From positions 96,955 to 128,954 of the forward strand of contig NZ_JWJD01000004.1 in the NCBI RefSeq assembly GCF_000820505.1: a DNA stretch of 32,000 nucleotides, in the 5' to 3' direction. Origin of the DNA: Geoalkalibacter ferrihydriticus DSM 17813 (GTDB lineage Bacteria > Desulfobacterota > Desulfuromonadia > Desulfuromonadales > Geoalkalibacteraceae). Positions 3,479-30,185 of the stretch are shown here, piece after piece (the stretch's first letter is position 1; every line of letters begins with the position of its first letter). Position numbers and translations under genes: made by a program. The notes beneath the pieces are model-generated. The model was given only the letters and a program-made list of their open reading frames with translations. It was not told where the DNA came from and ran no database searches.

Positions 3479-3493
3479 AGCCCTTGTCACGCT

Positions 3494-3908: not shown

Positions 3909-4021
3909 AAGCTGGGAGCGTTTGTCTGTCCACTTGCATGTAACCTCTCCAGAGCTCGGCGCAATTTCAGAGTTCTTTATTCTTGCATTTTGGGACGCGA
4001 TCATCGTCGAGGAGACACTCG

Positions 4022-6805: not shown

Positions 6806-7385
6806 GTTTGACGAGGTCTGCCTGCGTCTGGGGCACGGCCGGCGGCTGGAGAGTACCGGCTCCGACCCTATTTATTATCTGGTATTCCCGGTCAGCGAAA
6901 TTCTCGCCGTGAAGCGTAATACCCGCGCCTGGGTCGCCAAACTGGAGAATCTGGGTTGGCGGGTGGTTACCCTTTCCATGGCCGAGGCGCTAAACTCAAT
7001 CCTGCGACAGCACAAGCTGCGCAGGCAATGGCTCCTTGGCGAGAAGATGGTCCTAGATCAGGCCGCGCGCACAGGCAAGCCCATAGAGTTTGGCGAAATT
7101 AATAAAACTTTGGCTAAGGCCCTGACCGAAGGCACCGATCTCATTATGCTTCTGAGGGCCAAAATGGAGGAAGCGACCGCGCAGCCCAATGGTATCCTCC
7201 TCCTTACCGACCTGGAAGCGCTGCATCCGTATCTGCGCATCAACAGTATCGAGGCCCAGCTACAGGGATCGATCCGCTGTCCGGTAGTGGTCCTCTACCC
7301 TGGCAAGCGCGAAGGAAAGACCAGTCTACGGTTCCTGGAATTCTACCCCGCCGACCCCAATTATCGTTCCGAGCACATCGGATAA
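6786..7385 (+). CDS. brxB: BrxB (DUF1788-like)
   Basis: 199 aa. Positioned between brxA and the large ATPase. DPIYYLVFPVSEILAVKR...VVVLYPG is typical of DUF1788 as I recall it. Confidence 0.7.
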   Translation: MHSLKDKFDEVCLRLGHGRRLESTGSDPIYYLVFPVSEILAVKRNTRAWVAKLENLGWRVVTLSMAEALNSILRQHKLRRQWLLGEKMVLDQAARTGKPIEFGEINKTLAKALTEGTDLIMLLRAKMEEATAQPNGILLLTDLEALHPYLRINSIEAQLQGSIRCPVVVLYPGKREGKTSLRFLEFYPADPNYRSEHIG

Positions 7386-7402
7386 CCGAAGGAGCTTTCG
7401 CT

Positions 7403-11023: not shown

Positions 11024-11025
11024 TT

Positions 11026-15057: not shown

Positions 15058-17570
15058 CGATTCGGGAATACATCCGTGATCAGGTCTTCCGCCGCAGAGC
15101 CCAGGAGAAAGGTGCACTCGTCATTTATGACCCAGTTCGCCGCTATTACGATGTTGCTCTGGATATGGCATGGGAAAAATGCCAGGTGATCGACGTTTCC
15201 CCATCTATCATTGAGCAGCGTGAGGCAGCTACGGAAGCTCTCAGCTCCTTGGCGGACGGTAACATCCATCAACTGGTGATCTGGATTCCGGCGCCTCCTC
15301 CCGCGGACAGCGATGCCAAGCAGCGAGACCCCTTTGCCGTTTTCGCCGAGATCGGAGCCGTCTTCCCCTCGGGCGATGGCGATGATTACGCTTCCATTTG
15401 TCGCCGGGCCAAGCCGGATCATGTCCCGGAAATCAATAGGCTTTTCGAAGACGGGGAGCCGACCTTTGATATGATGGATGCGCTCGACCAGGGGGGCTCC
15501 TGGCCCAAACTGAAAACCCTGCTGGGAGCCTCGTCCGCGAGAGAAATCCTGATCGGCATCGTATCGCCGAAACCGGAACAGGAAGAGGCGCTCAAGCAGG
15601 ACCCGACCTGGGTGGGAGAAGCCAGGGAGTTTGTTCATCGCAGCCTTGGGCAAAGGCTTAAGACCAAGGGGCAGACACGTCAGTCGATCGCTGACGAGTT
15701 GTGGCGGATCATCCTTTTCAGCGAATTCGTATTCGATTCCGGGAGTGAAATCCCCTCGGCCCTTGCGACCCTTCCGCAAGCCGGGATCGAGGCGAAATCT
15801 CTGATCTACGATCTCTGTGATGAGTTACGCAAGCACGAGGACCATAAGGATACCTACACGATCTTTGCCTTGGAGATCGAGCAGGAGCTTTCACTCGCGG
15901 AGCGTACTCGCGAGATGACACAGTTTGGGGAGCGGGATACCTTCTCCTTTGAAGAGCGCCTTTTCCTGCAGCGCATGGTGGACCAGGCCCTTGATGGTGA
16001 GCTTGAAAAAGCAAGGGAAATCTGGGAGAGCCGCAGAAAGTCCATCTGGATGGGGCAGGAGGAGCGTTTGGCCGAGTGGACCCTTTCCTTGAGGGCTCTC
16101 GATCTTCTCGATACAGCCAGTCGTCTGAGCACCCCCCGCTTCCCCACGCTTGAATCGATCATCCATGGCTACGCTTTGAACTGGCGCGACCTGGACCGCC
16201 ACCACCGAGAGATGGAACAGGCCGTCAATGAGTGGCAGGGGGACCACGAAGGGCTGGAAACATTGGTCGCCCGCGCCCGTTCTGCATACTTCCGATCTGT
16301 TGAGGCTCTTCAAGCCGAATTCGTTCGCCTGGTGGCTACCGAGGGGTGGCCGGTCAGTGGGGGCCAAGTGCTCTGGAACTGCCAGATCTTCTCGAAAATG
16401 GTCGCCCCGGCCCTCGACGCCGGCGAGCGCGTGGCCTATTTTCTCATTGATTCTCTACGCTATGAACTGGGCGTCGAGATCGAAAAGCAGCTATCTGACA
16501 AGCGGCCGGTTATCCTGCACACCGCCTGCGCTCAACTGCCGACTTATACCGAAGTGGGGATGGCCAGCCTGATGCCCGAGGCCGAGTCTGCTCTCAAGAT
16601 GATCAGCAAGGATGGGAAACTGGTCACGACCCTCGGTGGACAGGTGGCAACTGCCCCGGCTACGCGCTTGGCCTACCTGCAATCGAAAAAAGGTGACCAG
16701 TGCGGCGATATCGACCTTGACGATTTGGTTCGCCAGAAGAAACCGAAAATGGGAGACAAGGTGCGACTGCTTCTTGTCCGCACCCGTGATATTGACTCCA
16801 TTGCCCATGATACCCCTCATCACGTCCTGCAATTGATCCCGACACTTGTGCGCCAGATCCTTCGCGGGTTGACCAAGGTGGCGGATATGGGCTTCGATAG
16901 AGCGATCATTGCCACTGACCATGGATTCATCCTCTTCCATGAACAAGGGGCAGGGAATGTTGCCCCGCGCCCGGCAGGTAACTGGCTGATCGAAAAAACT
17001 CGGTGCATGCTCGGCCAGGGCCAGGCCGATGCAGCGAACTTGGTGCTGAAACGCGAAGATCTAGGTATCCCAGGTGATTTCGAAGAATTTGCCGCGCCCA
17101 AAGCTTTGGTCCCTTATTCCCGCGGACAGATATACTACCATGAGGGGTTATCCCTCCAGGAATGCGTGCTTCCCTGCCTCAACGTTCAACTTGTCTCTGG
17201 CAAGAAAGGGAAAAAGCTCTCACCCGATAGCCTGGTATTGACTTATCGCCAGGGGAAAACCAACCGCATTACCTCTCGTCGTCCTGTCGTGGATTTGGCC
17301 TGGCCGCAGGCTGGGCTATTCACCGAAGAGGGAGAAATCGAGGTCGTTATCGAGGCCGCCGATCCCAAAGGAAAGATCGTAGGTTGGGTAGGCTCCTGCC
17401 CGACAATTAACCCCGCGACTGGCGGGGTGCGCATCAACCCCGGCGCCGCTCTCTCTGTAGGACTCCGGATGGAGGATGATTTCTCTGGGGACTTCACCGT
17501 GCGGGTGCTCGACGCAGCGACAAACGTATTGCTGGCCAGCCTTCATCTTGAGACGGGATATTTCGAATGA
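15054..17570 (+). CDS. pglZ: PglZ alkaline-phosphatase-superfamily protein
   Basis: 838 aa. PglZ-domain motifs YFLIDSLRYELG and IIATDHGF. ATGA overlaps with both neighbours. Confidence 0.9.
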   Translation: MTIREYIRDQVFRRRAQEKGALVIYDPVRRYYDVALDMAWEKCQVIDVSPSIIEQREAATEALSSLADGNIHQLVIWIPAPPPADSDAKQRDPFAVFAEIGAVFPSGDGDDYASICRRAKPDHVPEINRLFEDGEPTFDMMDALDQGGSWPKLKTLLGASSAREILIGIVSPKPEQEEALKQDPTWVGEAREFVHRSLGQRLKTKGQTRQSIADELWRIILFSEFVFDSGSEIPSALATLPQAGIEAKSLIYDLCDELRKHEDHKDTYTIFALEIEQELSLAERTREMTQFGERDTFSFEERLFLQRMVDQALDGELEKAREIWESRRKSIWMGQEERLAEWTLSLRALDLLDTASRLSTPRFPTLESIIHGYALNWRDLDRHHREMEQAVNEWQGDHEGLETLVARARSAYFRSVEALQAEFVRLVATEGWPVSGGQVLWNCQIFSKMVAPALDAGERVAYFLIDSLRYELGVEIEKQLSDKRPVILHTACAQLPTYTEVGMASLMPEAESALKMISKDGKLVTTLGGQVATAPATRLAYLQSKKGDQCGDIDLDDLVRQKKPKMGDKVRLLLVRTRDIDSIAHDTPHHVLQLIPTLVRQILRGLTKVADMGFDRAIIATDHGFILFHEQGAGNVAPRPAGNWLIEKTRCMLGQGQADAANLVLKREDLGIPGDFEEFAAPKALVPYSRGQIYYHEGLSLQECVLPCLNVQLVSGKKGKKLSPDSLVLTYRQGKTNRITSRRPVVDLAWPQAGLFTEEGEIEVVIEAADPKGKIVGWVGSCPTINPATGGVRINPGAALSVGLRMEDDFSGDFTVRVLDAATNVLLASLHLETGYFE

Positions 17571-19681
17571 ACCAGGATGCCCTCGACATCAAACTAAACG
17601 ACGTCTTCTTCGGCAAGGTGGTGCGCAAGGATCTGCTCCTTCAGGTAAAAAAGGGGACCAACGTTCCATCCTTCGTGCTGGAATTTCTTCTGGCTCGCTA
17701 CTGCGCCAGCGATGATCCGCGAGAGATACAGGAGGGGATGGCTGCGGTTCTGGAGACCATTCAGAAGAACTACGTGCGCCCCGACGAGAGCAACAAGGCG
17801 CAGATGATCGTTCAACAGAGGGGCAAGCACACCTTCATCGACAAGATCCACGTCAAATATTTTGAGAAGGAGAAGCGGCCTTGGGCGCGGATGGAGAATT
17901 TCAATTCCTCACGCATCGCTATAAACGATCGCTACTACCAATCTGAAAACGACCGCATCTTCGAAGGGGGGATCTGGGCGGAGTGCACCGTTGCCCACAA
18001 CGATGTTGAAGATGACCCTTATGCCTTCTACATCGAAAAGCTTAAGCCGATCCAACTTTCCAGGTTTGATTTCGATGGGTTCGTGGAGGGGCGCAGGCAG
18101 TTCACCCGGGACGAGTGGATCGATGTACTGATCCGCTCGTTTGGCATTGAGCCGAGCTGGATGAGTCCGCGCCTGAAGTTTCATTATCTGGCCCGACTCG
18201 CTCCCTTGGTGGAGGCGAACTTCAACTTCATCGAGCTGGGTCCGCGCGGGAACGGGAAGTCCTACACTTTCAGCGAGTTCTCACCTTATTCGACGTTGCT
18301 CGGTGCACCGACCTCTGCCGCAACACTCTGGTGGAATAACGGCCGCAAGCAGGTTGGAATTATAGGCTTTTGGGACGTAGTGGCTTTTGATGAGGTCGGC
18401 GAAGGGATCGTGGTGCGAGATCGCGAGACCTTTCAGGTGATGAAGCAGTACATGGCCAACGGCAATTTCACCCGATCTTCCTCAATGGTTACGGCGAGCG
18501 CCAGCTTGGCTTTCATCGGCAATATCGATGATGCGATTGAGTCGGTGGTCAACTCCCCTGAGCATTCGCTCTTCAAGCCTCTGCATCCAGTATTCGATCT
18601 GGCCATTCTGGACCGTTTCCATACCTTCGTTCCCGGCTGGGAGATTCCGAAGAACAAAGACGAGAACCTGACCCGCAATTACGGTTTGATAATCGAATAC
18701 CTGGCCGAGGCATTTCACCATCTCGCCCGCAAAACGAACCGTTTCGCCCAGGTGAAGGCTGCCTGCAAACTCGGCCCCGGCTATGACCAGCGGGACCAGA
18801 CGGCCGTGCTGAAGACCGTCTGCGCTTTCGTCAAGATGCTCCATCCGGGCGACGAGCCGACCCAGGAGGAAATCAACGAGTATCTCGCCTATGCGATCGA
18901 AGGGCGGCGGCGGGTGAAGGAGCAGCTCAACAAAAAGAAGCCGGACGACGAGTTCGCCAATATCAACCTCGGTTTCTACGCACCCGACGGGCAGTTGATT
19001 ACGGTCTTCTGCCCCGAATCGCGTTATGCCGACGCAACCCAGAACCCCTCACGCAGCCGGGCGCAGGAAGAAGAGGATGAGACTGTAGCTGCTAAGCCCG
19101 CTACTGTACAGCCACCTCCAGGGGCCTTTCCTCCGCCGGAGGCTCAACCTTCGGCCTTACCGGAGCCCGTTGCCTCAGAGCAGACGGAAGCCCTTGCCGC
19201 TAATAGAAGCGAACCGAAGGAGCGGCACTATCGAATCCATTACGGAGCAATCGGGCATTCCTACGAGAGCATCTTCGGCGACTACCTGCCTGGAGCAGAG
19301 GAGATCGTCATCGAGGACCCCTATATCCGGCAAAATCATCAGATCGGCAACTTCTTGCGCTTTTGCGAAACGGCCGTTCGTCTAGGCAAGCCGAAGCGTA
19401 TTGTCCTGATCACGAAGTTTGACAACCAGTTCGAGAAGGACGAGGCGATGGCAAAGCTGTTTTCCATCGCCGACAGTCTGAAGCAGCTTGATATATCTTT
19501 GGAGATCAAGGAAAACGCAGCCTTGCACGATAGAGAGATAAGGCTGAGTAACGGCTGGACCTTAAAGATCGGGAGAGGTTTTGACATCTACCAGAAACCG
19601 GACGATTGGTTCCAGATCGGCGCAAATGACCTTTTTCTTAGACCGTGTTTGGAAACGAATGTGGACGTGATTCCGCGGTAG
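17567..19681 (+). CDS. brxL: BrxL-like AAA+ protein with a non-canonical C-terminal MIT_C/PLD-like domain
   Basis: 704 aa. The BrxL-type N-terminus is LDIKLNDVFFGKVVRKDLLLQVKKGTNVPSFVLEFLLARYCASDD. Walker A ELGPRGNGKSY, Walker B VVAFDEVGEG. The C-terminal ~150 aa (EDPYIRQNHQIGNFLRFCE...LHDREIRLSNGWTLKIGRGFD...LRPCLETNVDV) matches my memory of the MITD1 C-terminal domain, not a Lon protease domain. Confidence 0.8.
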   Translation: MNQDALDIKLNDVFFGKVVRKDLLLQVKKGTNVPSFVLEFLLARYCASDDPREIQEGMAAVLETIQKNYVRPDESNKAQMIVQQRGKHTFIDKIHVKYFEKEKRPWARMENFNSSRIAINDRYYQSENDRIFEGGIWAECTVAHNDVEDDPYAFYIEKLKPIQLSRFDFDGFVEGRRQFTRDEWIDVLIRSFGIEPSWMSPRLKFHYLARLAPLVEANFNFIELGPRGNGKSYTFSEFSPYSTLLGAPTSAATLWWNNGRKQVGIIGFWDVVAFDEVGEGIVVRDRETFQVMKQYMANGNFTRSSSMVTASASLAFIGNIDDAIESVVNSPEHSLFKPLHPVFDLAILDRFHTFVPGWEIPKNKDENLTRNYGLIIEYLAEAFHHLARKTNRFAQVKAACKLGPGYDQRDQTAVLKTVCAFVKMLHPGDEPTQEEINEYLAYAIEGRRRVKEQLNKKKPDDEFANINLGFYAPDGQLITVFCPESRYADATQNPSRSRAQEEEDETVAAKPATVQPPPGAFPPPEAQPSALPEPVASEQTEALAANRSEPKERHYRIHYGAIGHSYESIFGDYLPGAEEIVIEDPYIRQNHQIGNFLRFCETAVRLGKPKRIVLITKFDNQFEKDEAMAKLFSIADSLKQLDISLEIKENAALHDREIRLSNGWTLKIGRGFDIYQKPDDWFQIGANDLFLRPCLETNVDVIPR

Positions 19682-19792: not shown

Positions 19793-20764
19793 TCATGCAT
19801 CCTCAGGAAGTGAGGGTTGAGTCAGAGGAAAATAAAGGCTACCAAAATTATCAAGCTTATCCCGCCAGTCTGGTGACGGCCCACTTCTTGGCACTCGAAC
19901 AAATTCCAAAATATGATCTTCGGTTCTTCCCCTTTCTTTTTCCCAAGGCAGAATCGCAATACCGACAGAATGGCGATCCAGCAAATGCAGGATTTCGGAA
20001 AAAATTCTAATGCGTTCACTACCAATATTTGATGGAAAAATGACCCAAATAGCCTTAAAAAAACAGGCATTAAAAAGCAGTCGGCTCAAAAGTGGCTCGA
20101 TGCGCTGCTTAAAGTTTTCGTTTGACCGGAGGTGAAAGAACATAAACCCAACGTCCTCTGATTTTTTGGTTTCAGGATCCCACCCAAATGCTATTGCATC
20201 AACAGACAAAGGGAATTGCATAGGTTTTACTTTTTCAATACTTCTTTTGATTTTATCCACGAACATGCTTGGTTGCGCATAGAGAAGACCACGAAAGGCT
20301 GCCTCTTCAAATTCTCCTCTTTCTTTTTTCGCAAGTTGCTGGCCAGAAGCGGCACTCGCGTTCTTGGAAAACACCTGTTTATAGTGTTCTCGCAAGTTCC
20401 GGTAAGTTAATTTCCCCCCTGCAACTTCGGCCAACATTTTGACCCCTTCGTTGGGATTCACCTGATGCAGGCGTTTTATCACCTCAAGGCTAGGGAAAGA
20501 TAAAGTATCTGGATCGACCCCCGCCAAATCCTTAACAGAACCCTTGACTGAATCGAAAAACTCCCTGACAGCCATCATACGATTCACCGTATTCAGGCTG
20601 TAGCCACATGCCTTGCAAGCGTCTCTGATTCTTCGGTGCGGGTGTGCATATCCTGCTTTAGAGTAATGTTGCTTGAATTTCTCAAAAGTCGATGCTACCG
20701 AGTACCAATTGCCCTTAATTCTGGATAGTTCCGCCAATTCTTGGAGCAGGCTCTGCGGATTCAT
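19793..20764 (-). CDS. Hypothetical protein (AT-rich orphan); possible N-terminal helix-turn-helix
   Basis: 323 aa. Good RBS on the minus strand (GGGAGA, 6-nt spacer, ATG at 20764). AT-rich: the hand-counted line 20221-20280 is 20/60 GC. No motif I can name. It is convergent with brxL and divergent from tnsA. Confidence 0.7.
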   Translation of the reverse strand: MNPQSLLQELAELSRIKGNWYSVASTFEKFKQHYSKAGYAHPHRRIRDACKACGYSLNTVNRMMAVREFFDSVKGSVKDLAGVDPDTLSFPSLEVIKRLHQVNPNEGVKMLAEVAGGKLTYRNLREHYKQVFSKNASAASGQQLAKKERGEFEEAAFRGLLYAQPSMFVDKIKRSIEKVKPMQFPLSVDAIAFGWDPETKKSEDVGFMFFHLRSNENFKQRIEPLLSRLLFNACFFKAIWVIFPSNIGSERIRIFSEILHLLDRHSVGIAILPWEKERGRTEDHILEFVRVPRSGPSPDWRDKLDNFGSLYFPLTQPSLPEDA

Positions 20765-20784
20765 AATTTATCTCCCAAAGAAAC

Positions 20785-20929
20785 GTCGCACAAGCGTGCG
20801 ATCTTTATTGACAAAAGGCTTTGCCAGTGCTAAATTTGTAGCACAATAGTGCGACGTGGCATAAAAGTGCGACACACTATAGCAGTTTACAAATACGTCA
20901 AAGAGAATGCACGAGAAATTTAGTGCACG
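20785..20929. promoter_or_regulatory. Cluster of GTGC-type half-sites in the divergent intergenic region (operators and/or TnsB-binding sites)
   Basis: Palindrome TCGCAC-aagc-GTGCGA (20786-20801). Palindrome GTGCTA-aatttg-TAGCAC (20827-20844). Direct repeats AGTGCGAC at 20848-20855 and 20866-20873 (18-bp period). AGTGCACG at 22 nt-offset position 20922-20929. Confidence 0.35.
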
Positions 20930-20997
20930 GCACTGAGTATCTTGATGATGGGCACCAAAGGAAACTCTCTTTAGAATCCCCTCGCACGGGAGCAGGT

Positions 20998-21870
20998 ATG
21001 AAAAAAAGAAGGGGCATATCACCGAACGATGTTAAACGTTGGATCGCCAAGGGTGACGGCCAAGGAACGGGTCGAGAGTATAAGCCGTTTTTTCATGTCC
21101 GGGATGTTCCCTCTTGTGGTCGATCATCCATGGTGCTGGGCCTGAAAACCGGTCGAGTCCATCATTATCTCTCCGATCTCGAATACGCCTGCCACATTCT
21201 GGCCGAGTATGCGGGGGACATTACCGACATCCGGGAACAGTTCACCCTGCTCCCTTGGGAGGAAACGCAGAGGATTGCTGATGGGCTTGGCATTCGCCAT
21301 CCTACTTACCCAGGAACAAAAACCCCGACACTCATAACTTCAGACTTGGTGCTGACTTCAGAAAAAGAAGGGCAAAAGAGCTACGGGGTCATCTGCGTCA
21401 AGCATTCTTCGGCGACGATCCTACCTCGGGAGGCCAACATGTTCACATCAAAATTCAAGAAGATAGGCCGCCGAGTTCGGCGGGTTATGGAAAAACTCCT
21501 CATCGAAAAAACTTACTGGGAGCTCCGAGGCGTTTCTTGGCGCCTGGTTACCGAACAGGACATCCCCATGGTTCGTGTCCGTAATTTGGATTTGCTTCGG
21601 GGGAGTATGGTCTCCGAGGAACTCGACAGTGTGAACACACTTATGGGGGACTTCCTAAAGATATTTGATTCAAACTGGACGGCCAACCGTACGTTTCTCC
21701 GCATCCTCGACCGAGTCGGCGAAAAAATAGGTCTCTCGCGGGAAGAGTGTTTCACCCTCTTCAGCCGGGCCGTCTGGCTGCGACTCCTTCCCGTTGATCT
21801 GGACAAAAAAGTCATCCATCACGATCAGCCACTGCTCAGGATTGCAAACCAAGGAGGCGACAGATGCTAA
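20998..21870 (+). CDS. tnsA: TnsA, endonuclease subunit of a Tn7-like heteromeric transposase
   Basis: The ATG at 20998 gives MKKRRGISPNDVKRWIAKGDGQGTGREYKPFFHVRDVPSCGRSSMVLGLKTGRVHHYLSDLEYA. This is collinear with the Tn7 TnsA N-terminus (RRIKEGRGQGHGKDYIPWLTVQEVPSSGRSHRIYSHKTGRVHHLLSDLELA, from memory). Catalytic-position residues are conserved (SDLE, TSDLVL, CVKHS). Confidence 0.9.
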   Translation: MKKRRGISPNDVKRWIAKGDGQGTGREYKPFFHVRDVPSCGRSSMVLGLKTGRVHHYLSDLEYACHILAEYAGDITDIREQFTLLPWEETQRIADGLGIRHPTYPGTKTPTLITSDLVLTSEKEGQKSYGVICVKHSSATILPREANMFTSKFKKIGRRVRRVMEKLLIEKTYWELRGVSWRLVTEQDIPMVRVRNLDLLRGSMVSEELDSVNTLMGDFLKIFDSNWTANRTFLRILDRVGEKIGLSREECFTLFSRAVWLRLLPVDLDKKVIHHDQPLLRIANQGGDRC

Positions 21871-24041
21871 GCATCAACGATTTCCTCTGTGCAGCGCCAG
21901 ATACTTCGACGGTCATCGAAGGGGTTTCTCGCCTAGTGGGTGTCGACTCCCAGAATTTCGCATACCTGATCCGTGTAGACGAATCGCCACTTAAGGGGCC
22001 GATCCAGATCCCCATGCTCCAATTGCAGGCAGCTATCCAGGCTGGAGAGGTTCTCCTGGATCAGGAAATCACCATCGAACTACCTCCTACCCTGGAGGTG
22101 CTGAATTCTGCGGGAATAGAAAAAGTAAAGAAATCAATGGATGTTCTTACCCCGCTTGTCTTGGATGATAATGTCCTCTTCAACCCGGAGTATCGCGCAC
22201 GGATGTTTGCCCAGCGGGGTGAGGAATGCAAAATTCATCCGCGACAAATTCGCCGTCTCTATTATCGGTACATGTGGGGCGGGCAGACTGAGCTGGCCCT
22301 CGCCCCCATGTTTTCTAGGTGTGGAGGGCGCGGCCAAAAGCAAAAGCCGGGTTCAAAGAAGAGGGGCAGGAAACCCCAGGATAGCACAGTGGCCAGTCAG
22401 GTCTCCTTGCCAGACGTGCGCGAAAAGCTAGAAAAAGGCGCTAAGAAATTTTACCTGCCGGACGGCCTCACCCTGGAAGAAGCCTTCATCGAGACAAAAA
22501 ACAAGTATTTCACAAGGGGACTGCATATAGAAAGGGGAGCTCCAGTCACTGCAATTCTTCTCCCGAAAGAACAGTTACCCAGTCTCGCTCAATTTCGCTA
22601 TGTCTGCGGCTACCTCGGCAAAACTCGGAAAAATGGCCGTAGAATTCGCCAGAAGCTTGTGGAATGGGAATTCAGAGGTCGAAATCGTGACAATGTTCCG
22701 GGACCAGGCTATCGGTTCGAAATAGACGCAACAAAATTACAAGTCAGACTGGTCTCGCGGTATGACCGGTCCAAGACACTCAAGGATCCAACTCTCTACG
22801 CCATCATCGACGTTTGGTCTGGGGCCATCGTCGGTTATGCACTTTCGTTTCACAACGCTAGCTGGGCACTGGCATCAAAGGCGCTGCAAAACTGTTTTAC
22901 GGACAAACAGGAGGTATTCGAGCGATTGGGTATGAATTGGTACTCCAGAGAGGATTGGCCCTGCCAGCACCTCCCTCAACGTCTCGCTGCTGACAGAGGC
23001 GAACTGGTTAGCAATAAAGCAGGTTTGATCCCGGAAATTGGCCTTAAAGTTGAAATCATGCCACCGATGTGCCCGCAGCTCAAAGGTAAGGTTGAGGCAT
23101 CAATCAAGGACGTTAAGCATGGACATTCCCATCGGCTGCCCGGTCGTCATCCAAAAAACCGTCAACGCCGTGAGACCGATGGAACCGAAACAGCAGCTTT
23201 AACCATCGAGGAAATGGAGAGGGTGATTGTCGAAATCATCATCGGGCTAAACCACGAACCGGCACCCGCCGCTCACATCCCTCCCGAGATGATCGAGGAG
23301 GGAGAGACCGATGTAACGCGCATTGGGCTGTACCGGTGGGGAGTAGAACGCTACACTCTCACACGGTCGCTTACCAAAGAAAAAATTTGGGAGAGTCTCC
23401 TGATGAAGGGTGAGGCGGCACTCACGCCTAAAGGACTCAATTTCAAGTGTCAGACCTATAGACTTCCTGCGGGCGCTAATGTCATGTCCCGTTGGAGGGC
23501 ATCCGGAAAAGGAAACCCTCTGGTTCATGTCCGGTATGATGAACATCATGCAGACCAGATCTGGTTCATGGACCAGAAAGAAAAAAAATGGGTCCCGGCA
23601 TCCAATGTCAGCGAAAACATCAAGCGGCGAAAAGCGGCGTTTTACGAATTGGAAATCAGCCGACAGGAGGTGAAACACCTCCGGCGCCTCGCAAAAGACG
23701 AAAACCTTCACCGGGAGAGCGAACGACGCCAACGGATCAATGCAATTATCACCCAGGCTGAGGAGGAAACCAAGGAGGATAGGAAAGGGGTTTCCATTGC
23801 AGGCCGCAAAAAAGATCGAATGGAAAACACCCAACTTGAAAGAGCGGCAAGCGAGATGATCGCCTCCGGCGCTACGGCCATGGCACCGGCTCCACAGCCG
23901 ACACCGGCAGTGGGGGCGCAAAAAGATATCACAGGAGCTGTTTCGCCTGGCCCCCTGCCTGCCCCGTCCGGAGAGACGAAAAATCACCCTGAAAATAAGA
24001 TTCATCCTGCTGAATTGTCGATTCAGATGTGGGAGGACTGA
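21864..24041 (+). CDS. tnsB: TnsB, DDE (Mu-like) transposase
   Basis: 725 aa. AAGGAGG lies 6 nt before the ATG at 21864, and the gene overlaps the tnsA stop. DDE-region motifs EIDATKLQV, IIDVWSGAIVGY, LAADRGELVS. Confidence 0.9.
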   Translation: MLSINDFLCAAPDTSTVIEGVSRLVGVDSQNFAYLIRVDESPLKGPIQIPMLQLQAAIQAGEVLLDQEITIELPPTLEVLNSAGIEKVKKSMDVLTPLVLDDNVLFNPEYRARMFAQRGEECKIHPRQIRRLYYRYMWGGQTELALAPMFSRCGGRGQKQKPGSKKRGRKPQDSTVASQVSLPDVREKLEKGAKKFYLPDGLTLEEAFIETKNKYFTRGLHIERGAPVTAILLPKEQLPSLAQFRYVCGYLGKTRKNGRRIRQKLVEWEFRGRNRDNVPGPGYRFEIDATKLQVRLVSRYDRSKTLKDPTLYAIIDVWSGAIVGYALSFHNASWALASKALQNCFTDKQEVFERLGMNWYSREDWPCQHLPQRLAADRGELVSNKAGLIPEIGLKVEIMPPMCPQLKGKVEASIKDVKHGHSHRLPGRHPKNRQRRETDGTETAALTIEEMERVIVEIIIGLNHEPAPAAHIPPEMIEEGETDVTRIGLYRWGVERYTLTRSLTKEKIWESLLMKGEAALTPKGLNFKCQTYRLPAGANVMSRWRASGKGNPLVHVRYDEHHADQIWFMDQKEKKWVPASNVSENIKRRKAAFYELEISRQEVKHLRRLAKDENLHRESERRQRINAIITQAEEETKEDRKGVSIAGRKKDRMENTQLERAASEMIASGATAMAPAPQPTPAVGAQKDITGAVSPGPLPAPSGETKNHPENKIHPAELSIQMWED

Positions 24042-25465
24042 TGAGGGATTGGATCAACGATAGCCCTGAGTATTTCGATTTCCCGATCCCCGAATTCCAA
24101 GGGAATCCTCTCGTCGAGGCATTGCGGCCTCCACCGATGGATAAGACGGAGGCAATTTCGCGGCTAAGTCAAAAGCCTCTTTTTAACAGGAGCGAACGCG
24201 ATCTTCCCTCCTCCATGAGGATGGCTCTGCCCTCACGCTTGCAGAACTTCATGTTCCCAACCCAACAGCACATCGGGTTATTGGATCGGATTTACTGCCA
24301 AATCCTGAACGGCTATCGTAGGTATAACCCGGCCACAGTCTTAGGCCAGCAATATCTCCATGGTGAAGGTAACCCCTTTAACGATCCTAATAAGACCCCT
24401 TCAAATATTTCCTTCCTGACCGGACTTTCCGGCATGGGCAAATCCAGTCTGATCCGCAGTATTATGCGGGCAATGGGCAAGCCGCTCATCGTGCATTCCA
24501 ACTACAAAGGTGCTCCATTCCCGGAGTCACAGATCCTCTATCTCATGAGGAATGTGCCCGACCAGTGCAGTGCCAAATCTGTCTGCAAGAAAATCGGCCT
24601 CCATGCTGACACCCTGCTTGGCAAGAAACTTTATGCTCAACGATTCACAGACAAGGCATCAAGATCCGAATACGTCTCCGCACTTGAGGCAATTATCAAA
24701 AATCACCATGTCGGCGCTCTTGTCATCGACGAATTTCAAAATATCTCCTTGGCAAAATCTGGCGGCAAGGGAGAGGTTCTAGCCCTGATTCACAATCTCC
24801 GCGACGAACTCGGAGTTCCCATCATCCTTGTCGGGACCTATAAAGCCGCAGCAATGTTAAGGGAGGAAACCAGCCTCGCGCGCCGTCTCGTTGAGGGCGG
24901 TTTTCACGAACTGAAGAGGCCTGCCGACCCAAGCGATATAAATTGGCGTGCCCTCTGCAACATCGTCTGGCGCTATCAGTGGGTGAGAGAACCGCAAGAC
25001 ATCAGCGACAAAATCGTCCAAACCTTATATGGCTTCAGTCAGGGAATCACCGGCATCATGATCAACCTCTTTATTACCGCCCAGACCTACGCGATCGAGG
25101 AAGGGCTCGAAACCGTGACCTGTGGTCTGTTGAATGAGATCTATCATGAACGCTTCCGGCCGATACACCACATCATCCACCTTCTCCGGGAAAACAATCC
25201 GGCAGTTTTGAGCCAGTATGACGATCTCTACTTTGACGCGATTGCGGAAATGGATGACGATCCATTACAGAACCGCATCAAAGCTCTTCGAGAAGGGATG
25301 GCAGACACCAAGGAGGCTCTGTTGGAAAATATTGCCGCCGGGCCGCCCCAGAATGTAGCCAAACCTCGCCAAGGAAGAAAAAACAAGCTGACGACAAAAA
25401 GCCTCCACGATGCGATCCGAGGGTCTGCTCAAAACTCTGCCGATATCCTCGGAAAAAGGGCATGA
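24041..25465 (+). CDS. tnsC: TnsC AAA+ ATPase
   Basis: I prefer the ATG at 24041 (GGGAGGA at 24031-24037; TGATG overlap with the tnsB stop) over the GTG at 24029. Walker A TGLSGMGKSSLI, Walker B ALVIDEFQN. Confidence 0.85.
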   Translation: MRDWINDSPEYFDFPIPEFQGNPLVEALRPPPMDKTEAISRLSQKPLFNRSERDLPSSMRMALPSRLQNFMFPTQQHIGLLDRIYCQILNGYRRYNPATVLGQQYLHGEGNPFNDPNKTPSNISFLTGLSGMGKSSLIRSIMRAMGKPLIVHSNYKGAPFPESQILYLMRNVPDQCSAKSVCKKIGLHADTLLGKKLYAQRFTDKASRSEYVSALEAIIKNHHVGALVIDEFQNISLAKSGGKGEVLALIHNLRDELGVPIILVGTYKAAAMLREETSLARRLVEGGFHELKRPADPSDINWRALCNIVWRYQWVREPQDISDKIVQTLYGFSQGITGIMINLFITAQTYAIEEGLETVTCGLLNEIYHERFRPIHHIIHLLRENNPAVLSQYDDLYFDAIAEMDDDPLQNRIKALREGMADTKEALLENIAAGPPQNVAKPRQGRKNKLTTKSLHDAIRGSAQNSADILGKRA

Positions 25466-27366
25466 ATACGTTTCCTTTCTTCCCTGTGCCAGCCTCGGGC
25501 GAGACGGCTTACTCTCTTTTCAGTCGCTCCATCGCGCGCTCAGGTCTTCCCGAAACCTATCTTTTGCAGGAGTTTACCTGCCAACGGCACTCCACAACCC
25601 TGCTATCGGCACTTCCGGGCTATCTGTCATCTATTTCGAGGAGAATGCCGCTCGGCCATCCTTGGCGAGACGCGACCCTTATCGTTCGTAAGCATACCTC
25701 ACTGCCGTATTTCATTTACTTCGACGAGAAGGAAAATCGAGACAGATGGGTGGACAGGCTTGCGGGAATCGACTCTTCCCAGCCGATAACAATGGCGCTG
25801 GGGTTGACCAGCTACCCTCGCGGAATGCTTTCTATCCATCCCAGATATTGTCCGACCTGTGTTCAAGTAGACCGCGACAACTATGGTTTTCCCTGGTTCC
25901 GACGCGAGCATCTGTTGCCAGGAGTGGCGGTCTGCTGGCGGCATGGTACGGCCTTAGCTCAGGGTTGCAGCCGCTGTGGTCCGTATCCCATAAAAGGCAG
26001 AGCCCTGAGCATGGCCGGCAGATGTCTCTGCCAGGAGGGAATAAATCCGCTGCCAGTCCATGCCGACCTACCGGAAGACACCGAACCACTTCTCTGGCTC
26101 GCTCGGCAGAGTGCTTGGATGGTGAACTCGCCAGGAAGCCCCTTCGGTGGCATCAGGGCGACCTTGCGGGAGAAAGTCCTGGAGAAAGGTTTCGGGCGAG
26201 GTTCCTTGATTGAGCCACGTCGGCTCGCAAAAGCTATTGAGGAGAGATTCGGAAGGCAAACTCTGGAATGGCTGGGAACTCCTGCCTGGGAAGGGGAAAG
26301 ACCTGCGGCATGGCTCCGGAGACTTCTTTCAGGACAACTCGACGGGAAGAAGCGCAGCCCTGCCCTCCTCTTCCTTATCATCATTGGAACGCTCTACGAA
26401 TCGTTAGAGGCTTTTGAAAAAACAGCAGAAGATCTATCTCGACCTGAGACAATCGAAGAAGAACTGGTGCTGCCGACCTGGAGCGCAGATCTTTTTCGGC
26501 TCCTTCAAACCGGTGAATGCGGCCTACCCGGAATCTCCAAGCAACTTGGGATCTCGACCTATCGGCTCATTGAGAAAATTCGCCAACGTGGCTGGCGCGT
26601 TCCTCTTTCCCACCAGACTCGAAAAAAACTGGGAGACGCGAAGATCTCTGCAATCAAGGAAGATTTTATGCAGGGGATGGAGAAAACACAGATCATGCGC
26701 CACCACGGTTGCAGCGAATGGGCACTCACTTTGATTGAACTGGATGAACCTGGGCTAAACGCCAGCTTCCGAGGTGCTGCGAAGCTTATAACGCAAGAAC
26801 GAAACCGCGCTCGGTTGCGCGACCATCTCTCCGCAAACCCGACTGCAACCCGAATCGATATCTTGGAAGGTCTGCCCGGTGTTTATGACTATATGCTTAA
26901 ACAGGATAAGGAGTGGTTCTACAAACAAATTTCCGAGAAAAAGGCCGCGGCGCCAACTCCCAGGAAAAGCAGAGTCGACTGGGCCCTTCTCGATCAGAAT
27001 AAGGCGATAGAGATCGCGGGCGTATTTGACGAGATGCTGGCATCGGGCCCAAAACCAGTGCAGGCGACCGCCACTGCAGCCCTGAAAAGGGCCGGCCTTC
27101 TACGACAATATAGCAATGATCCTACCAAATTCCCCCTGGTTGCCGGCATCCTTCAAGAGCGTTCCGAATCGCGGCAAAACTTTATCCGGCGCCGCCTAGC
27201 CTGGGCGGTGGAGCAAATGGCCAATTCCGGAGACCCCATCTCAATCAACAAGCTTCGCCGAGTCGCCTCCCTTCCGGCAGAAACTATGAGAGATCACAGG
27301 CAAGAAGTCATTAACCTAGCGGAGCAGATGAACACCGCTATCGATGGAGGATCATTTTTTGCGTAA
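25462..27366 (+). CDS. tniQ: TniQ/TnsD-family target selector
   Basis: 634 aa. ATGA overlap with tnsC. TniQ-type N-terminus FPFFPVPASGETAYSLFSRSIARSG. Cys/His cluster CPTCV...CWRHG...CSRCG. The long C-terminal extension resembles TnsD. Confidence 0.8.
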   Translation: MNTFPFFPVPASGETAYSLFSRSIARSGLPETYLLQEFTCQRHSTTLLSALPGYLSSISRRMPLGHPWRDATLIVRKHTSLPYFIYFDEKENRDRWVDRLAGIDSSQPITMALGLTSYPRGMLSIHPRYCPTCVQVDRDNYGFPWFRREHLLPGVAVCWRHGTALAQGCSRCGPYPIKGRALSMAGRCLCQEGINPLPVHADLPEDTEPLLWLARQSAWMVNSPGSPFGGIRATLREKVLEKGFGRGSLIEPRRLAKAIEERFGRQTLEWLGTPAWEGERPAAWLRRLLSGQLDGKKRSPALLFLIIIGTLYESLEAFEKTAEDLSRPETIEEELVLPTWSADLFRLLQTGECGLPGISKQLGISTYRLIEKIRQRGWRVPLSHQTRKKLGDAKISAIKEDFMQGMEKTQIMRHHGCSEWALTLIELDEPGLNASFRGAAKLITQERNRARLRDHLSANPTATRIDILEGLPGVYDYMLKQDKEWFYKQISEKKAAAPTPRKSRVDWALLDQNKAIEIAGVFDEMLASGPKPVQATATAALKRAGLLRQYSNDPTKFPLVAGILQERSESRQNFIRRRLAWAVEQMANSGDPISINKLRRVASLPAETMRDHRQEVINLAEQMNTAIDGGSFFA

Positions 27367-27639
27367 CGCGAAATGCATCCTCCAAACCACGTTGCCGGAA
27401 CAGTTTTCAGGCAGTCTCAGTACCGTGACTTTTCAAACATAAAAAGGGCTATTTTCATTTGAGGGTTGAGGTGGCCCTTTCTGCAGGCACCTTCCATTAC
27501 CCTCTCTCGGCGCGACACCTTTGGCATGGTCTTTGATTATTACTACAAGACAGGAGTTTGGCAGAATTTGACTGGATGGCGATGGGGTAGGTTTCATGCG
27601 AAGCGATATGTCCTTGAAAGAAAAAGGAACTAAAAACAA

Positions 27640-28098
27640 CTATTCAGGAGGCTTAAAAGTGGGGACTTCAAGCAGGGGGAGCAACATTGGCTTAAAACCA
27701 CAACGGGCTGTAAGGGAATATGCATGCTCTCGCAAATAGGGAAATAAGATCAGAGGAGCATTTCTTTGTGCCCAGTGGTCAATATGCTCCACAGGAAACT
27801 CACTTTCATCAACTTTGAAATTGCCAACAATTTCAATTCTCATTGAAAAAGGAGCCGAGTTTTCCTTTTCATCTTCTTCGAAGCCGACCTCAAGCTTCAA
27901 AGAAACACTGATCTCTTTATCTTCCTCATCATACTCACTATGACCTACCATAAGAGAGAACCTGCCCCCTTCGACACCTTTATCTTCGCTAGGGGGTCCA
28001 TTCGCTGAAATAAATAATTCTTTGACCAACACACCTTGGACTTGAATGGGATGATATTTAGTCAAAGGAACTCCCTCTTTTTTCTCAGCCATTGACAA
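27640..28098 (-). CDS. SecB-like chaperone
   Basis: 152 aa (the start is TTG at 28098 or ATG at 28092). It aligns by eye with E. coli SecB. IQVQGVLVKELFISANGPP matches FQIQRIYTKDISFEAPNAP. NAPLILFPYLREHAYSLTARCGFKPMLLPLLE matches [32 protein letters not shown]. Confidence 0.75.
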   Translation of the reverse strand: MSMAEKKEGVPLTKYHPIQVQGVLVKELFISANGPPSEDKGVEGGRFSLMVGHSEYDEEDKEISVSLKLEVGFEEDEKENSAPFSMRIEIVGNFKVDESEFPVEHIDHWAQRNAPLILFPYLREHAYSLTARCGFKPMLLPLLEVPTFKPPE

Positions 28099-28100
28099 AC

Positions 28101-28406
28101 CTAAGCAGCCAATTTGAAGGGGATGTAATTTACATCCTTGTCAGGAGAAGAGAAAATATCATGTTTAATGCTTTTTCTATATCTCTTCTCAGACTTTGAT
28201 GTTGAATATTTGATTTCGCCAAAAAATAAATTTTCTCCAGGCGCAAAAGTAAACGCTTCGTTTAGGTTGGACAATACAGGTTTTTTTACATGCTTATAAA
28301 AATCATAATTAGACTTTTCAAGAATAGCATCAACCTCTGCGTCGGTGGCAGCTTCAAAAAATGTCTCAATTCGATCCTTTAAGTTTTCTGTCCATTTCTT
28401 TTCCAT
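28101..28406 (-). CDS. Small protein of unknown function (antitoxin candidate by position)
   Basis: 101 aa. The ATG at 28406 is 2 nt after the upstream stop, and its own stop is 2 nt before the SecB-like ORF. The N-terminal half is acidic and the C-terminal tail is basic (KSEKRYRKSIKHD). Confidence 0.6.
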   Translation of the reverse strand: MEKKWTENLKDRIETFFEAATDAEVDAILEKSNYDFYKHVKKPVLSNLNEAFTFAPGENLFFGEIKYSTSKSEKRYRKSIKHDIFSSPDKDVNYIPFKLAA

Positions 28407-28408
28407 CT

Positions 28409-28936
28409 TTAATACCCTTTATAGTGTAAGTGCATACTCAAAATGTTTTGTGTATTCCTTACGCAAATTAAAACTGGATTATACAGAAACAGCCTTTCTC
28501 CAACCTTAAGGTCTTTTTTCCACACAAAGCTGCATTTGACTACATCTGCGCCTTCCAAAAGAGCAACGAAATTAATTGCTACAGCGTCGGTTACGTCCTT
28601 TTTCCCTCGTGCTATGAGATTTTCCTTTGCGACCTTTACAGCTTCTGCATGCTCATAGGTATTAAGGTTAAGGCACCTACCCAAATTAATTGTAGCACAA
28701 ATAACACCAATTTGCGGATCGGCAAGCCCTCTTTCTCTCGCGGCTCTTCTGCCCTCTCGCTCAGCGAAATAAGAGGATGACTCATGGAAGTATACCCCAT
28801 CACCTAACCAGTGCCGGGGACCTGTGCTAGGGTTAAAACCTTCCTTAAATATCTTGCCAGCAGAAATGAGCGTGGTGCCATGATATGCGTCTGGGACGAT
28901 TTTTTGAATATATTCAATCGTGGATTTTTTGCTCAT
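28409..28936 (-). CDS. ART-fold (PARP-catalytic-like / DUF3990-like) protein, toxin candidate
   Basis: 175 aa. Ordered motifs are AYHGTTLISAGKIFKEGF (H19), WLGDGVYFHESSSYF (Y49), IGVICATINLG and LFLYNPVLICV. These parallel PARP WHGSR / GKGIYFA / IGLILLGEVALG / LLYNEYIVY. Pro154 sits where the catalytic Glu would align. Confidence 0.5.
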   Translation of the reverse strand: MSKKSTIEYIQKIVPDAYHGTTLISAGKIFKEGFNPSTGPRHWLGDGVYFHESSSYFAEREGRRAARERGLADPQIGVICATINLGRCLNLNTYEHAEAVKVAKENLIARGKKDVTDAVAINFVALLEGADVVKCSFVWKKDLKVGERLFLYNPVLICVRNTQNILSMHLHYKGY

Positions 28937-29974
28937 GTTCCGGATGAGCCCTCAGCTCCCTAGCAGGGCCTAATCAGAAGAAGATTAGTTTTAGGATAAA
29001 ATACAAGATACCAAATTTTTCGCAAATAAAAACTTAATCAATATTATTTTTAGTATGGAGTCACAGCCGGCAAAACTCGGCAAATCGGCCTGGACAGTTA
29101 TTCTGTCCAGAAAGGGTGTGTGCTATCGGTAGTGGATGGTGAAGATAACAGACCTGACAAGCTGATGTCCATAAGAATATAAGGAAACCCACAACCACCA
29201 GTCAGGCGTCGCCGCTTCCTTGAGGGGGTTCGCTCTCCAGATTTACGATCATCCCAAACGGTTGCGGATCTCCCTTTTGATGCCAAGTTCCACTTAGATC
29301 AAGTGAGAGTTGCGCATTCACAGCGTCTTCTTCCTTGTCTTCGTATTTGAGTCTTATTTCACCAGAAATCATCCCTTCCTCCATTGGATTGCCTGCTGTA
29401 CATTGGAACGCATTATGTCACGGCTTCAGGGAGATTTAAAGCGGACGCTTTCGGGCGTCCTTTTTCGCACGGGTGCCAGCACAGTTTTCCAGCAATCTCG
29501 GGACCGGGACTTTTCAGACAGAAAGGAAGGGCCATTTTCATCCGCGGGATGAGATGGTCTTTTTCGCAGGTCAGGTGGGAGTTTTTTCCTCACCGGCCTC
29601 GATCTTTGATCTCCCATTATCGATGAGGTATTTGTAGTGCTGGTTGAGATCAAGAGCTAGCTACGCTCTCGTATCCGTCTCGATTCTTGTAAAGGCTCCA
29701 TTTGATTTCCACTTGACGTCCTTCCTCTGGTTTTGCTTTTTTCGCGAGAACGGTTACCTGTTACCTAAGGTCGGATTTCCGATCCAGTTCCAAAGCGGCG
29801 CTTTCCCCCATTGCGACTCCTCCCTGCTTATAGGCCTGGCACATCCGGACCACAAGTTATCCTTAGCAACCTCCGCGCCAATCATTGGAGGACACCCAGC
29901 GGCCAGGGACAAAATGCGAGACCAGTGCCAACCTCCTACAGAGCGCCTATATCTACCGCCGTCTGATCTTGATT

Positions 29975-30185
29975 GAGAGACAAGCTCTGTTAACAGAAAG
30001 GCCCCCTCGGCAAAAATCGCCGAGGGGGCCTTCACTGTTAAAATTTATGATTCAACAACTTGCTAAAAGAAATTGTCACTCGCTCAAACTCGGGAAATGA
30101 GTGACAATTTCTTTTAGCAATTAAGCCCTTTGTAACTACCTGAAATTACATAACCACCAGTGACAAAGACTTTTAGCATTTCACA
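29975..30185. repeat. Candidate Tn7-like left end: four copies of a 20-22-bp motif plus a TGT terminus
   Basis: Copy C (30099-30120, +): GAGTGACAATTTCTTTTAGCAA. Copy B (30060-30081) is its perfect reverse complement. Copy D (30159-30178, +): AGTGACAAAGACTTTTAGCA, 17/20 identical to C. Copy A (29975-29996, +): GAGAGACAAGCTCTGTTAACAG, 16/22 identical to C. Read inward from 30185 on the minus strand, the sequence is TGTGAAATGCTAAAAGTCTTTGTCACTGG. Confidence 0.55.
29998..30032. terminator. Strong orphan hairpin (14-bp perfect stem)
   Basis: AAGGCCCCCTCGGC (29998-30011), a 7-nt loop aaaaatc, then GCCGAGGGGGCCTT (30019-30032). On the minus strand it is followed by TTTCTGTT. No intact gene lies on either side. 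Confidence 0.4.

Follow-up and report, generated by a model that had tools for sequence, protein, structure and literature searches.

In a window of 32,000 nucleotides (nt) from Geoalkalibacter ferrihydriticus DSM 17813 (contig NZ_JWJD01000004.1, positions 96,955 to 128,954), three closely packed open reading frames (ORFs) on the minus strand code for a 175-residue protein with an ADP-ribosyltransferase (ART) fold, a 101-residue predicted antitoxin and a SecB-like chaperone of 150 or 152 residues. We hold with high confidence that this operon belongs to the CmdTAC family and has its toxin-antitoxin-chaperone (TAC) logic, and very likely it is a divergent, previously unannotated member of that family, not a new kind of system. 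CmdTAC, which stands for “chaperone-mediated defence,” is the present name of PD-T4-9, a system known from Escherichia coli ECOR22 (Vassallo et al. 2022, PMC9519451; Vassallo, Doering & Laub 2024, PMC11618068) and from E. coli O112ab:H26 (Mets et al. 2024, bioRxiv 10.1101/2024.02.24.581848). The association of an ART toxin, a chaperone-addicted antitoxin and a SecB-like chaperone was found in 2022 and its mechanism was worked out in 2024 (PMC9519451, PMC11618068, bioRxiv 10.1101/2024.02.24.581848). What is left as novelty in G. ferrihydriticus is the H-Y-P active site of the toxin, the conserved aromatic-LAA terminus of the antitoxin and the probable carriage by a Tn7-like element.

Operon organization

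Both junctions of the operon (Table 1) are only 2 nt long, TAA-AG-ATG between toxin and antitoxin and TAG-GT-TTG between antitoxin and chaperone. For the last gene, the NCBI annotation prefers the ATG at 28092 (150 residues) to the TTG at 28098 (152 residues). The operon is the most AT-rich block of the window, and four of the five most AT-rich 60-nt lines fall within it or directly 5' of it. The line 28141-28200, for example, has 18 G+C out of 60, versus a window median of 32 out of 60. By gene, the GC content is 0.42 (toxin), 0.34 (antitoxin) and 0.43 (chaperone), while the tns genes have 0.51 to 0.54 and the flanking acyltransferase gene 0.63, i.e., the operon lies 10 to 20 points below its surroundings. 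The minimum of the whole window (13 out of 60 G+C) is found at 28981-29040, within the AT-rich region that precedes the toxin gene and that, by its composition, presumably contains the promoter. A consensus scan of 27300-29400 gave promoter-like sites that were weak at best, and no terminator-like hairpin was detected in the same interval, including the stretch 3' of the chaperone gene. On sequence grounds, the three genes are real and not chance ORFs, because the toxin and the chaperone each have homologues in numbers from dozens to thousands, and the same order of three genes is seen again in unrelated genomes.

The initial annotation of the window had proposed a TAC operon of this shape, with three minus-strand ORFs at 2-nt gaps, a markedly AT-rich composition, an ART-fold toxin and a SecB-like chaperone recognized by a series of motifs, and carriage as the only cargo of a Tn7-like element inside a defence island. 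Coordinates and junctions, composition, all the quoted motifs (including P154 at the third position of the toxin triad and LILFPY in the chaperone), the two protein families, the gene order and the setting (beside Tn7-like tnsABCD genes and next to an island that contains Wadjet, PDC-S21 and BREX) were confirmed, and its mechanistic inference is also the one favoured here. The status of only cargo is plausible from the position of the operon. The initial annotation had also presented the combination as undescribed and the toxin as a new type, and this claim fails because the pairing of an ART toxin and an antitoxin that depends on SecB was published in 2022-2024 as CmdTAC/PD-T4-9, whose PADLOC models match the operon.

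Assignment to the CmdTAC family

According to the CmdTAC literature (2024), E. coli CmdT ADP-ribosylates mRNA, at the adenine N6 within GA dinucleotides, by which translation is blocked. The antitoxin CmdA is short, with a pair of N-terminal helices and a long disordered tail ending in LAA, and is degraded by ClpXP unless the SecB-like CmdC protects it. The terminal AA is a tested ClpXP degron, and its change to DD removes the dependence on ClpXP. The major capsid protein of phage T4 displaces CmdC, which triggers the system, and both characterized members are abortive-infection defences. The catalytic triad of CmdT has been given as H-Y-[E/D/Q] (PMC11618068, PMC9519451, bioRxiv 10.1101/2024.02.24.581848), and the Y41A mutation in the ECOR22 enzyme abolished both defence and toxicity (PMC11618068, PMC9519451). 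The rule for calling the system is three adjacent, co-oriented genes coding for the toxin, a small second ORF and the SecB-like chaperone, CmdA having been reported as too variable for the purpose (PMC9519451, PMC11618068).

The operon of G. ferrihydriticus has the order and orientation that this rule describes, with gaps of 2 nt. Large protein searches reached no E. coli protein directly. A reference locus was reached through a 45-nt primer used for cloning, whose sequence runs across the cmdT-cmdA junction (supplement of the 2022 paper). Out of 5426 complete E. coli genomes, the identical junction was present in one, that of strain N2250, within a P2-like prophage (L040, NZ_CP189474.1; Table 1). 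There, cmdTAC is located in the variable region of the prophage, between replication endonuclease/DinI-like genes and the portal gene, and is labeled in RefSeq as two hypothetical proteins plus a “protein-export chaperone SecB.”

Both loci are T-A-C operons of ca. 1.2 to 1.3 kb, with the same order and similar gene sizes, and a mobile element is the carrier in E. coli and probably also here. The chaperone is 31% identical to E. coli CmdC (BLASTP, E=7e-11) and matches the PADLOC model PD-T4-9_C with E=1.8e-13, and the antitoxin ends in ...FKLAA, with the LAA of CmdA. The conserved His and the essential Tyr of CmdT have their equivalents in H19 and Y49, the latter invariant and placed by BLASTP on Y43 of E. 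coli CmdT (RefSeq numbering), which is Y41 of ECOR22. The remaining evidence for the toxin comes from its family, represented throughout by 104 aligned homologues (used for residue counts, PADLOC matches and structure prediction). When this family was compared with E. coli CmdT by hhalign, the probability was 87% (E=3.8e-6) over 108 columns with ca. 23% identity. The hidden Markov model (HMM) of the family scored E. coli CmdT at 24 bits, and 99 of the 104 members matched the PADLOC model PD-T4-9_A, with a best E of 3.9e-13.

Several observations weigh against this assignment. The toxin taken alone matches PD-T4-9_A weakly (E=0.005, 14 bits, and 0.014), and its BLASTP alignment with E. coli CmdT is a single short stretch of 32 residues (E=2e-5). 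The third residue of its triad is not one of the published E, D or Q, a position that is loose across the whole subfamily, and its best structural matches include NAD+-degrading toxins, as discussed below. The antitoxin has no similarity to E. coli CmdA by sequence or profile comparison, and its single-sequence AlphaFold2 (AF2) model, with a predicted local distance difference test (pLDDT) of 43.7, is uninformative. Since the match of the toxin itself to CmdT is weak and short, membership of the family rests on family-level transitivity. The missing antitoxin similarity agrees with the published variability of CmdA. Judging from these scores, an automated caller that applies per-protein thresholds might miss this toxin.

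The differences from the E. coli system are also clear. The toxin belongs to a separate subfamily, recognizable by the motifs PDAYHGT, LGDGVYFFE, INLGRCLDL and ICVRN, and has Pro as third triad residue where the E. coli enzymes have Q, E or D. The antitoxin has 101 residues, versus 77 in ECOR22 CmdA, and sequence similarity between them is undetectable. The host is a member of the Desulfuromonadales with a Tn7-like element as probable carrier, in contrast to the P2-like prophage of E. coli.

With the classical TAC systems (HigB1-HigA1-Rv1957 of Mycobacterium tuberculosis, MqsRAC, HicAB-SecB and HigBAC of E. coli) the operon shares the gene order and probably also the principle of a SecB-like chaperone that protects the antitoxin through a C-terminal chaperone-addiction tail, with ClpXP reading an aliphatic C-terminal dipeptide. 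However, those systems have ribonucleases (RNases; HigB, MqsR, HicA) as toxins and DNA-binding homologues of HigA, MqsA or HicB as antitoxins, whereas in G. ferrihydriticus an ART takes the place of the RNase and the antitoxin lacks a recognizable DNA-binding domain. An RNase-type TAC was rejected, as no matches to HigB, MqsR, HicA, HigA, MqsA or HicB were found in Pfam, NCBIfam or PADLOC, the toxin matching PARP and the antitoxin no family. The two-gene systems DarTG, ParST, MbcTA and NatRT likewise have a NAD+-using toxin of the ART superfamily that is checked by a cognate antitoxin, and DarTG also acts in phage defence. In contrast to them, the operon lacks a RES motif as well as an antitoxin of the macrodomain, Xre or ParS type, and by analogy with CmdTAC its neutralization would require the chaperone as third protein. 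The resemblance of the toxin to MbcT and NatT is limited to the fold. Identity as DarTG or as a RES-Xre pair was discarded after finding no DarT, RES, macrodomain or Xre match at E<=1 in Pfam and PADLOC.

The toxin and its His-Tyr-Pro triad

The 175-residue protein is 100% identical to SAMN05660860_00121 of G. ferrihydriticus. Its match to Pfam PARP (E=9e-6) has 25.8 bits, just below the cut-off of 26.7, and PARP was its only Pfam family. A relation to DUF3990 (PF13151), suggested in the initial annotation, had to be dropped, with no match at E<=1. The AF2 model built on the alignment of the family is confident (pLDDT 94.9, predicted template modelling score 0.89). Searched with Foldseek against the PDB, all its matches at E<=0.001 were folds of the ART superfamily (MbcT, NatT, PARP1/2 and Tpt1), with E from ca. 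1e-4 to 1e-3 and template modelling (TM) scores of 0.31 to 0.48. The best two were MbcT (6fkg) and NatT (8qnl), with E of ca. 1e-4 and TM-scores of 0.46 to 0.48. Among viral models, ART-PolyVal and PARP-like phage proteins were matched, and the nearest solved chains by sequence, using the family profile, were PARP10, PARP4 and PARP1 (E 0.02 to 0.03). The protein is basic (isoelectric point 9.1) and contains the motifs YHGT (with H19), GDGVYF (with Y49), IGVICATINLG and LYNPVLICV (with P154). No member of the family deviates at H19, G20, G45, G47, Y49 or F50, and E52, C88, N122 and C158, among others, are nearly invariant.

The third triad position, residue 154, precedes the conserved ICVRN strand and is a Pro here. 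In the family this position is Q (45 members), E (18), R (17), P (5), H (5) or Y (4), among others, so that Q or E is found in 63 of the 104 and ca. 40% have neither. The other four Pro members (P0002-P0005) are the four closest homologues found; all are full length with 51 to 59% identity, and the two that were examined, P0002 and P0005, belong to complete triads. Mono-ADP-ribosyltransferase activity is established for human enzymes with H-Y-I, PARP10 among them. We think that the toxin is active, because the other Pro154 members are intact with operons kept (in the two examined) and because H-Y-I PARPs are active, although its chemistry or its target could differ.

The chaperone and the antitoxin

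The match of the chaperone to Pfam SecB (PF02556) that the initial annotation predicted was obtained, with E=2.2e-10 and 41 bits, above the cut-off of 26. It has the fold family and the conserved xAPxxLFPYxR segment of the housekeeping SecB, but is encoded within a toxin-antitoxin operon instead of the yibN-grxC-secB-gpsA context. Its best score in NCBIfam (33.5 bits) does not approach the SecB equivalog cut-off of 143. Identity with the housekeeping protein was ruled out by this score and by the location of the gene. The public label “preprotein translocase subunit SecB” is, as far as sequence can tell, misleading, because of a score so far under the equivalog cut-off and the toxin-antitoxin context.

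The antitoxin has no match in Pfam, NCBIfam or PADLOC. Its N-terminal segment is conserved (W..l...I..FF..aTd.E....LEk.nY.fYk), and its C-terminal tail, rich in aromatics and ending in ...NYIPFKLAA, is variable. We compared the ORFs in the equivalent position of 22 loci, and all share a similar N-terminal motif (roughly I..FF.n.TdeE....LEkA.Y.fYk), with the first ca. 40 residues conserved in the alignment and the tail variable and rich in aromatics, a layout compatible with the paired N-terminal helices and long tail of CmdA. Ala-Ala or Val-Ala closes 21 of the 22 sequences, usually with an aromatic-x-aromatic patch just before (e.g., NYIPFKLAA, AFDYKLAA or EYDYCLAA). This suggests that binding of the chaperone masks the degron, because the degron directly adjoins the aromatics to which the chaperone likely binds. 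In two distant toxin homologues that lack SecB (L028, 1098-1824, and L029, 2983-3634, from a Treponema metagenome-assembled genome [MAG] and Intestinibacter bartlettii), the next ORF has 50 to 64 residues and keeps the N-terminal motif without the tail. These short ORFs look like a two-gene ancestor or derivative of the system, an arrangement that would assign neutralization to the N-terminal part, with the chaperone-addiction tail added on.

Conservation and spread of the triad

A word-indexed profile search with the toxin retrieved 115 clusters. The full HMMER scan of 1.84 billion representatives gave 4448 clusters at E<=0.001, of which 2299 reached E<=1e-10 and 144 reached E<=1e-30. All the named proteins of the toxin subfamily are annotated as “hypothetical protein.” In a survey of neighbourhoods, the triad was conserved at all 15 distinct close loci that could be read, always as toxin, ORF of 73 to 126 residues and SecB-like gene, in Desulfobacterota, Ignavibacteria, Acidobacteriota and others. 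Bacillota loci with lower-scoring toxins often retain it too, while more distant members of the 4448 clusters lack the chaperone. The relatives adjoin integrases, resolvases, IS21 insertion sequences and prophage genes and are also found on plasmids and in a Pseudomonas phage. The closest homologous triad is located beside a resolvase and an IS21 in an integrase-bearing element, not beside Tn7. With the closest triad on a different type of carrier, the module evidently moves between carriers, as deduced from these neighbourhoods.

In phage and plasmid collections, tblastn with the toxin found nothing, but the chaperone as query did retrieve triads there, with toxins that score 21 to 30 bits on the family HMM. 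One is in Pseudomonas phage Turba (L001, OR683412.1, 1277-2690), labeled as two hypothetical proteins and a “protein-export protein SecB.” Its toxin ORF probably begins at the GTG at 1277, 33 nt 5' of the start given in the annotation, and with this longer reading the HGT motif is recovered. The other two are on the Thiodictyon megaplasmid pTs417 (L043, 1111-2453) and on the small plasmid pBDT201-1 of Acinetobacter indicus (L044, 1028-2396), both with toxin and antitoxin labeled as hypothetical. The latter triad adjoins an “abortive infection family protein” and a RelE/ParE pair. The antitoxins of the three end in YAYAA (Turba), PLAAS (Thiodictyon) and YLLAA (Acinetobacter). A different situation is found in Roseateles/Burkholderiales MAGs, in which the toxin-like domain is the C-terminal part of ORFs of 364 to 380 residues (L033, L034 and L039) or an ORF of 235 residues (L027), in all four cases without SecB downstream. 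The ART domain has apparently been reused there in another architecture.

Proposed mechanism and alternatives

The model that we favour for this CmdTAC-like operon combines the features described above with what is known from E. coli. The 175-residue protein would be a PARP-like mono-ADP-ribosyltransferase toxin, in keeping with its fold and family, which the N-terminal helical part of the antitoxin would bind and neutralize. The LAA end of the aromatic-rich tail would mark the antitoxin for ClpXP, and the SecB-like chaperone, by analogy, would hold this tail and protect the antitoxin. During infection, as with E. coli CmdTAC, an abundant newly made structural protein of the phage would compete for the chaperone, so that the antitoxin would be degraded and the toxin freed. 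As in E. coli CmdT, the free toxin would then ADP-ribosylate nucleic acid at the expense of NAD+, most likely single-stranded mRNA, stopping translation and aborting the infection. That the substrate is indeed mRNA, by analogy with CmdT, we consider an even bet.

A first alternative concerns the substrate. It is somewhat unlikely, but well within reason, that the toxin modifies something else, either DNA (as DarT), structured RNA (as RhsP2 and Tre23), RNA ends (as PARP10 and Tpt1) or protein. The distance to E. coli CmdT (recognizable at profile level), Pro154, the identity of the nearest solved sequences (PARP10, PARP4 and PARP1), the presence of Tpt1 among the structural neighbours and the wide differences in target among known nucleic-acid ARTs all speak for such a change. 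Against it, the family models and the operon logic are those of CmdT, and there is no positive pointer to any particular alternative. The basic isoelectric point suits binding of nucleic acid but does not specify which kind.

A second alternative concerns the role of the operon, which might be mainly an addiction system that stabilizes the Tn7-like element or the island by post-segregational killing and not a phage defence. If the operon were lost, the long-lived toxin would outlast the unstable antitoxin. The cargo position directly downstream of tnsD, the relatives on plasmids and beside integrases, resolvases and insertion sequences, and the LAA tag, which predicts an unstable antitoxin, are all compatible with this idea. 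However, the two characterized members of the family are abortive-infection defences, the neighbourhood is a defence island, and a chromosomal copy of a transposon gains little from post-segregational killing. We regard addiction as the main role as unlikely; it should be noted that the two roles are compatible with each other.

A minor rival, because the best structural matches include NAD+-degrading toxins, is that toxicity comes from the depletion of NAD+ by a glycohydrolase or phosphorylase activity, as in the RES-domain proteins MbcT and NatT, and not from transfer of ADP-ribose to a macromolecule. Here the top Foldseek positions of these two and the absence of the usual catalytic Glu/Gln count in its favour, but their TM-scores are low and no better than that of PARP2, Pfam gives PARP and no RES, the invariant His and Tyr are those of PARP/diphtheria-type enzymes, and the family matches the CmdT models, all of which makes this mechanism very improbable. 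Finally, the Pro at the catalytic Glu/Gln position could mean a dead toxin in a decaying or repurposed remnant, a reading that we find hardly credible with three intact and tightly coupled ORFs, the six invariant residues in place, intact Pro154 relatives at 51 to 59% identity that indicate selection (two of them in complete triads), many family members without Q or E (17 with Arg and 5 with His) and the established activity of H-Y-I PARP10.

Genomic context

The distance from the end of tnsD to the operon, which is downstream and convergent with it, is 273 nt, and cargo of Tn7-type elements occupies this position. On balance, we lean to the operon being cargo of this element. Position and composition are observed, and the module probably reached the site as cargo of the adjacent Tn7-like element. 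Its transposon-borne character is thus likely. The Tn7 ends and the target duplication were looked for by repeat finding, motif searches, k-mer sharing and ungapped inverted alignment, with no convincing result. The matches obtained were at chance level, with 18 of 24 positions for 20886-20911 versus 29613-29638, a score that about one pair would reach at random. When metagenomes were scanned with TnsB, no related element was recovered for comparison, and no RNA gene that could serve as attachment site was found by Rfam and tRNA scans.

Just 5' of tnsA, four GTGCGA(C) cores occur in 90 bp, two of them 18 bp apart as AGTGCGAC, with no inverted partner on the other side. From their sequence and position, they may be an operator or else candidate sites for the binding of TnsB at the transposon end next to tnsA. 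The distal end of the transposon, if it exists, should be within the spacer of ca. 1.2 kb between the toxin and acyltransferase genes, which has no credible gene (its small ORFs have no family matches). This spacer contains a GC-rich hairpin, a perfect inverted repeat and the repeated motif TTTTTCGC[AG] (Table 1).

Upstream of the operon there are, in this order, the end of a Wadjet system, a PDC-S21 gene (a single-gene candidate defence protein between Wadjet and BREX), a complete type 1 BREX system, a 323-residue ORF of low GC content and tnsABCD. Between PDC-S21 and brxA there are three ORFs without family assignment. The C-terminus of BrxL matches Pfam MIT_C (PLD-like domain) with E=1.9e-46.

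Table 1. Features of the window and of the E. coli reference locus
Feature	Position	Strand	Remarks
cmdT-like toxin gene	28409..28936	-	175 aa, ATG start; ADP-ribosyltransferase fold
cmdA-like antitoxin gene	28101..28406	-	101 aa, ATG start; without family match
cmdC-like SecB-family chaperone gene	27640..28098	-	152 aa (start TTG 28098) or 150 aa (start ATG 28092)
AT-rich upstream region, presumed promoter site	28937..29060	-	by composition
tnsA	20923-21870	+	Pfam Tn7_TnsA-like_N
tnsB	21864-24041	+	PADLOC TnsB E=4.3e-10
tnsC/tniB	24029-25465	+	Pfam TniB/AAA_22
tnsD/tniQ	25462-27366	+	Pfam TnsD and TniQ
Wadjet 3' part, JetC-like	88-1221		SbcC/RAD50-like Walker B protein
Wadjet 3' part, JetD	1221-2411
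PDC-S21 gene	2501-3478		DUF4917/SIR2_2-like; PADLOC PDC-S21 E=2.9e-108
ORF	3447-4004	-	185 aa; no Pfam/PADLOC match
ORF	3983-5260	+	425 aa; no Pfam/PADLOC match
ORF	5491-6024	+	177 aa; no Pfam/PADLOC match
Type 1 BREX, complete	6014-19681		BrxA, BrxB, BrxC, PglX (1343 aa), PglZ, BrxL
ORF between brxL and tnsA	19793-20764	-	323 aa; GC 0.447; no Pfam/PADLOC match
GTGCGA(C) cluster	20784-20874		four cores
Spacer, toxin gene to acyltransferase gene	28937-30160
TTTTTCGC[AG] motif	29016, 29461, 29560, 29737
GC-rich hairpin	29998-30032
Perfect 22-nt inverted repeat	30060-30120		17-nt spacer
Reference cmdTAC, E. coli N2250	L040 (NZ_CP189474.1) 3447-4660		CmdT 192 aa, CmdA 77 aa (ends LDLAA), CmdC 129 aa

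Implications

As a speculation that we consider quite unlikely, though worth stating, the His-Tyr-Pro subclade (5 of the 104 family members, with the toxin of G. ferrihydriticus among them), which has lost the acidic or amide residue that defines the CmdT family at the third position, may use a different chemistry, for example substrate-assisted as in the H-Y-I PARPs, or a target, nucleic acid or protein, that differs from the GA adenines of mRNA. Carried by a Tn7-like element, it would then act as a portable sensor, with a chaperone that recognizes structural proteins of the phages that infect iron-reducing Desulfuromonadales. To our knowledge, no TAC trigger has been described from these phages.

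For the family as a whole, the operon extends CmdTAC to a large and mostly environmental toxin subfamily (the 144 clusters at E<=1e-30 within the 4448 clusters of ART homologues), in which the published H-Y-[E/D/Q] triad is not strict. The aromatic patch conserved just before LAA indicates how the antitoxin might be protected, with the degron perhaps physically hidden by the binding of the chaperone. In G. ferrihydriticus itself, the operon is a probable case of Tn7-like elements carrying abortive-infection modules into defence islands.

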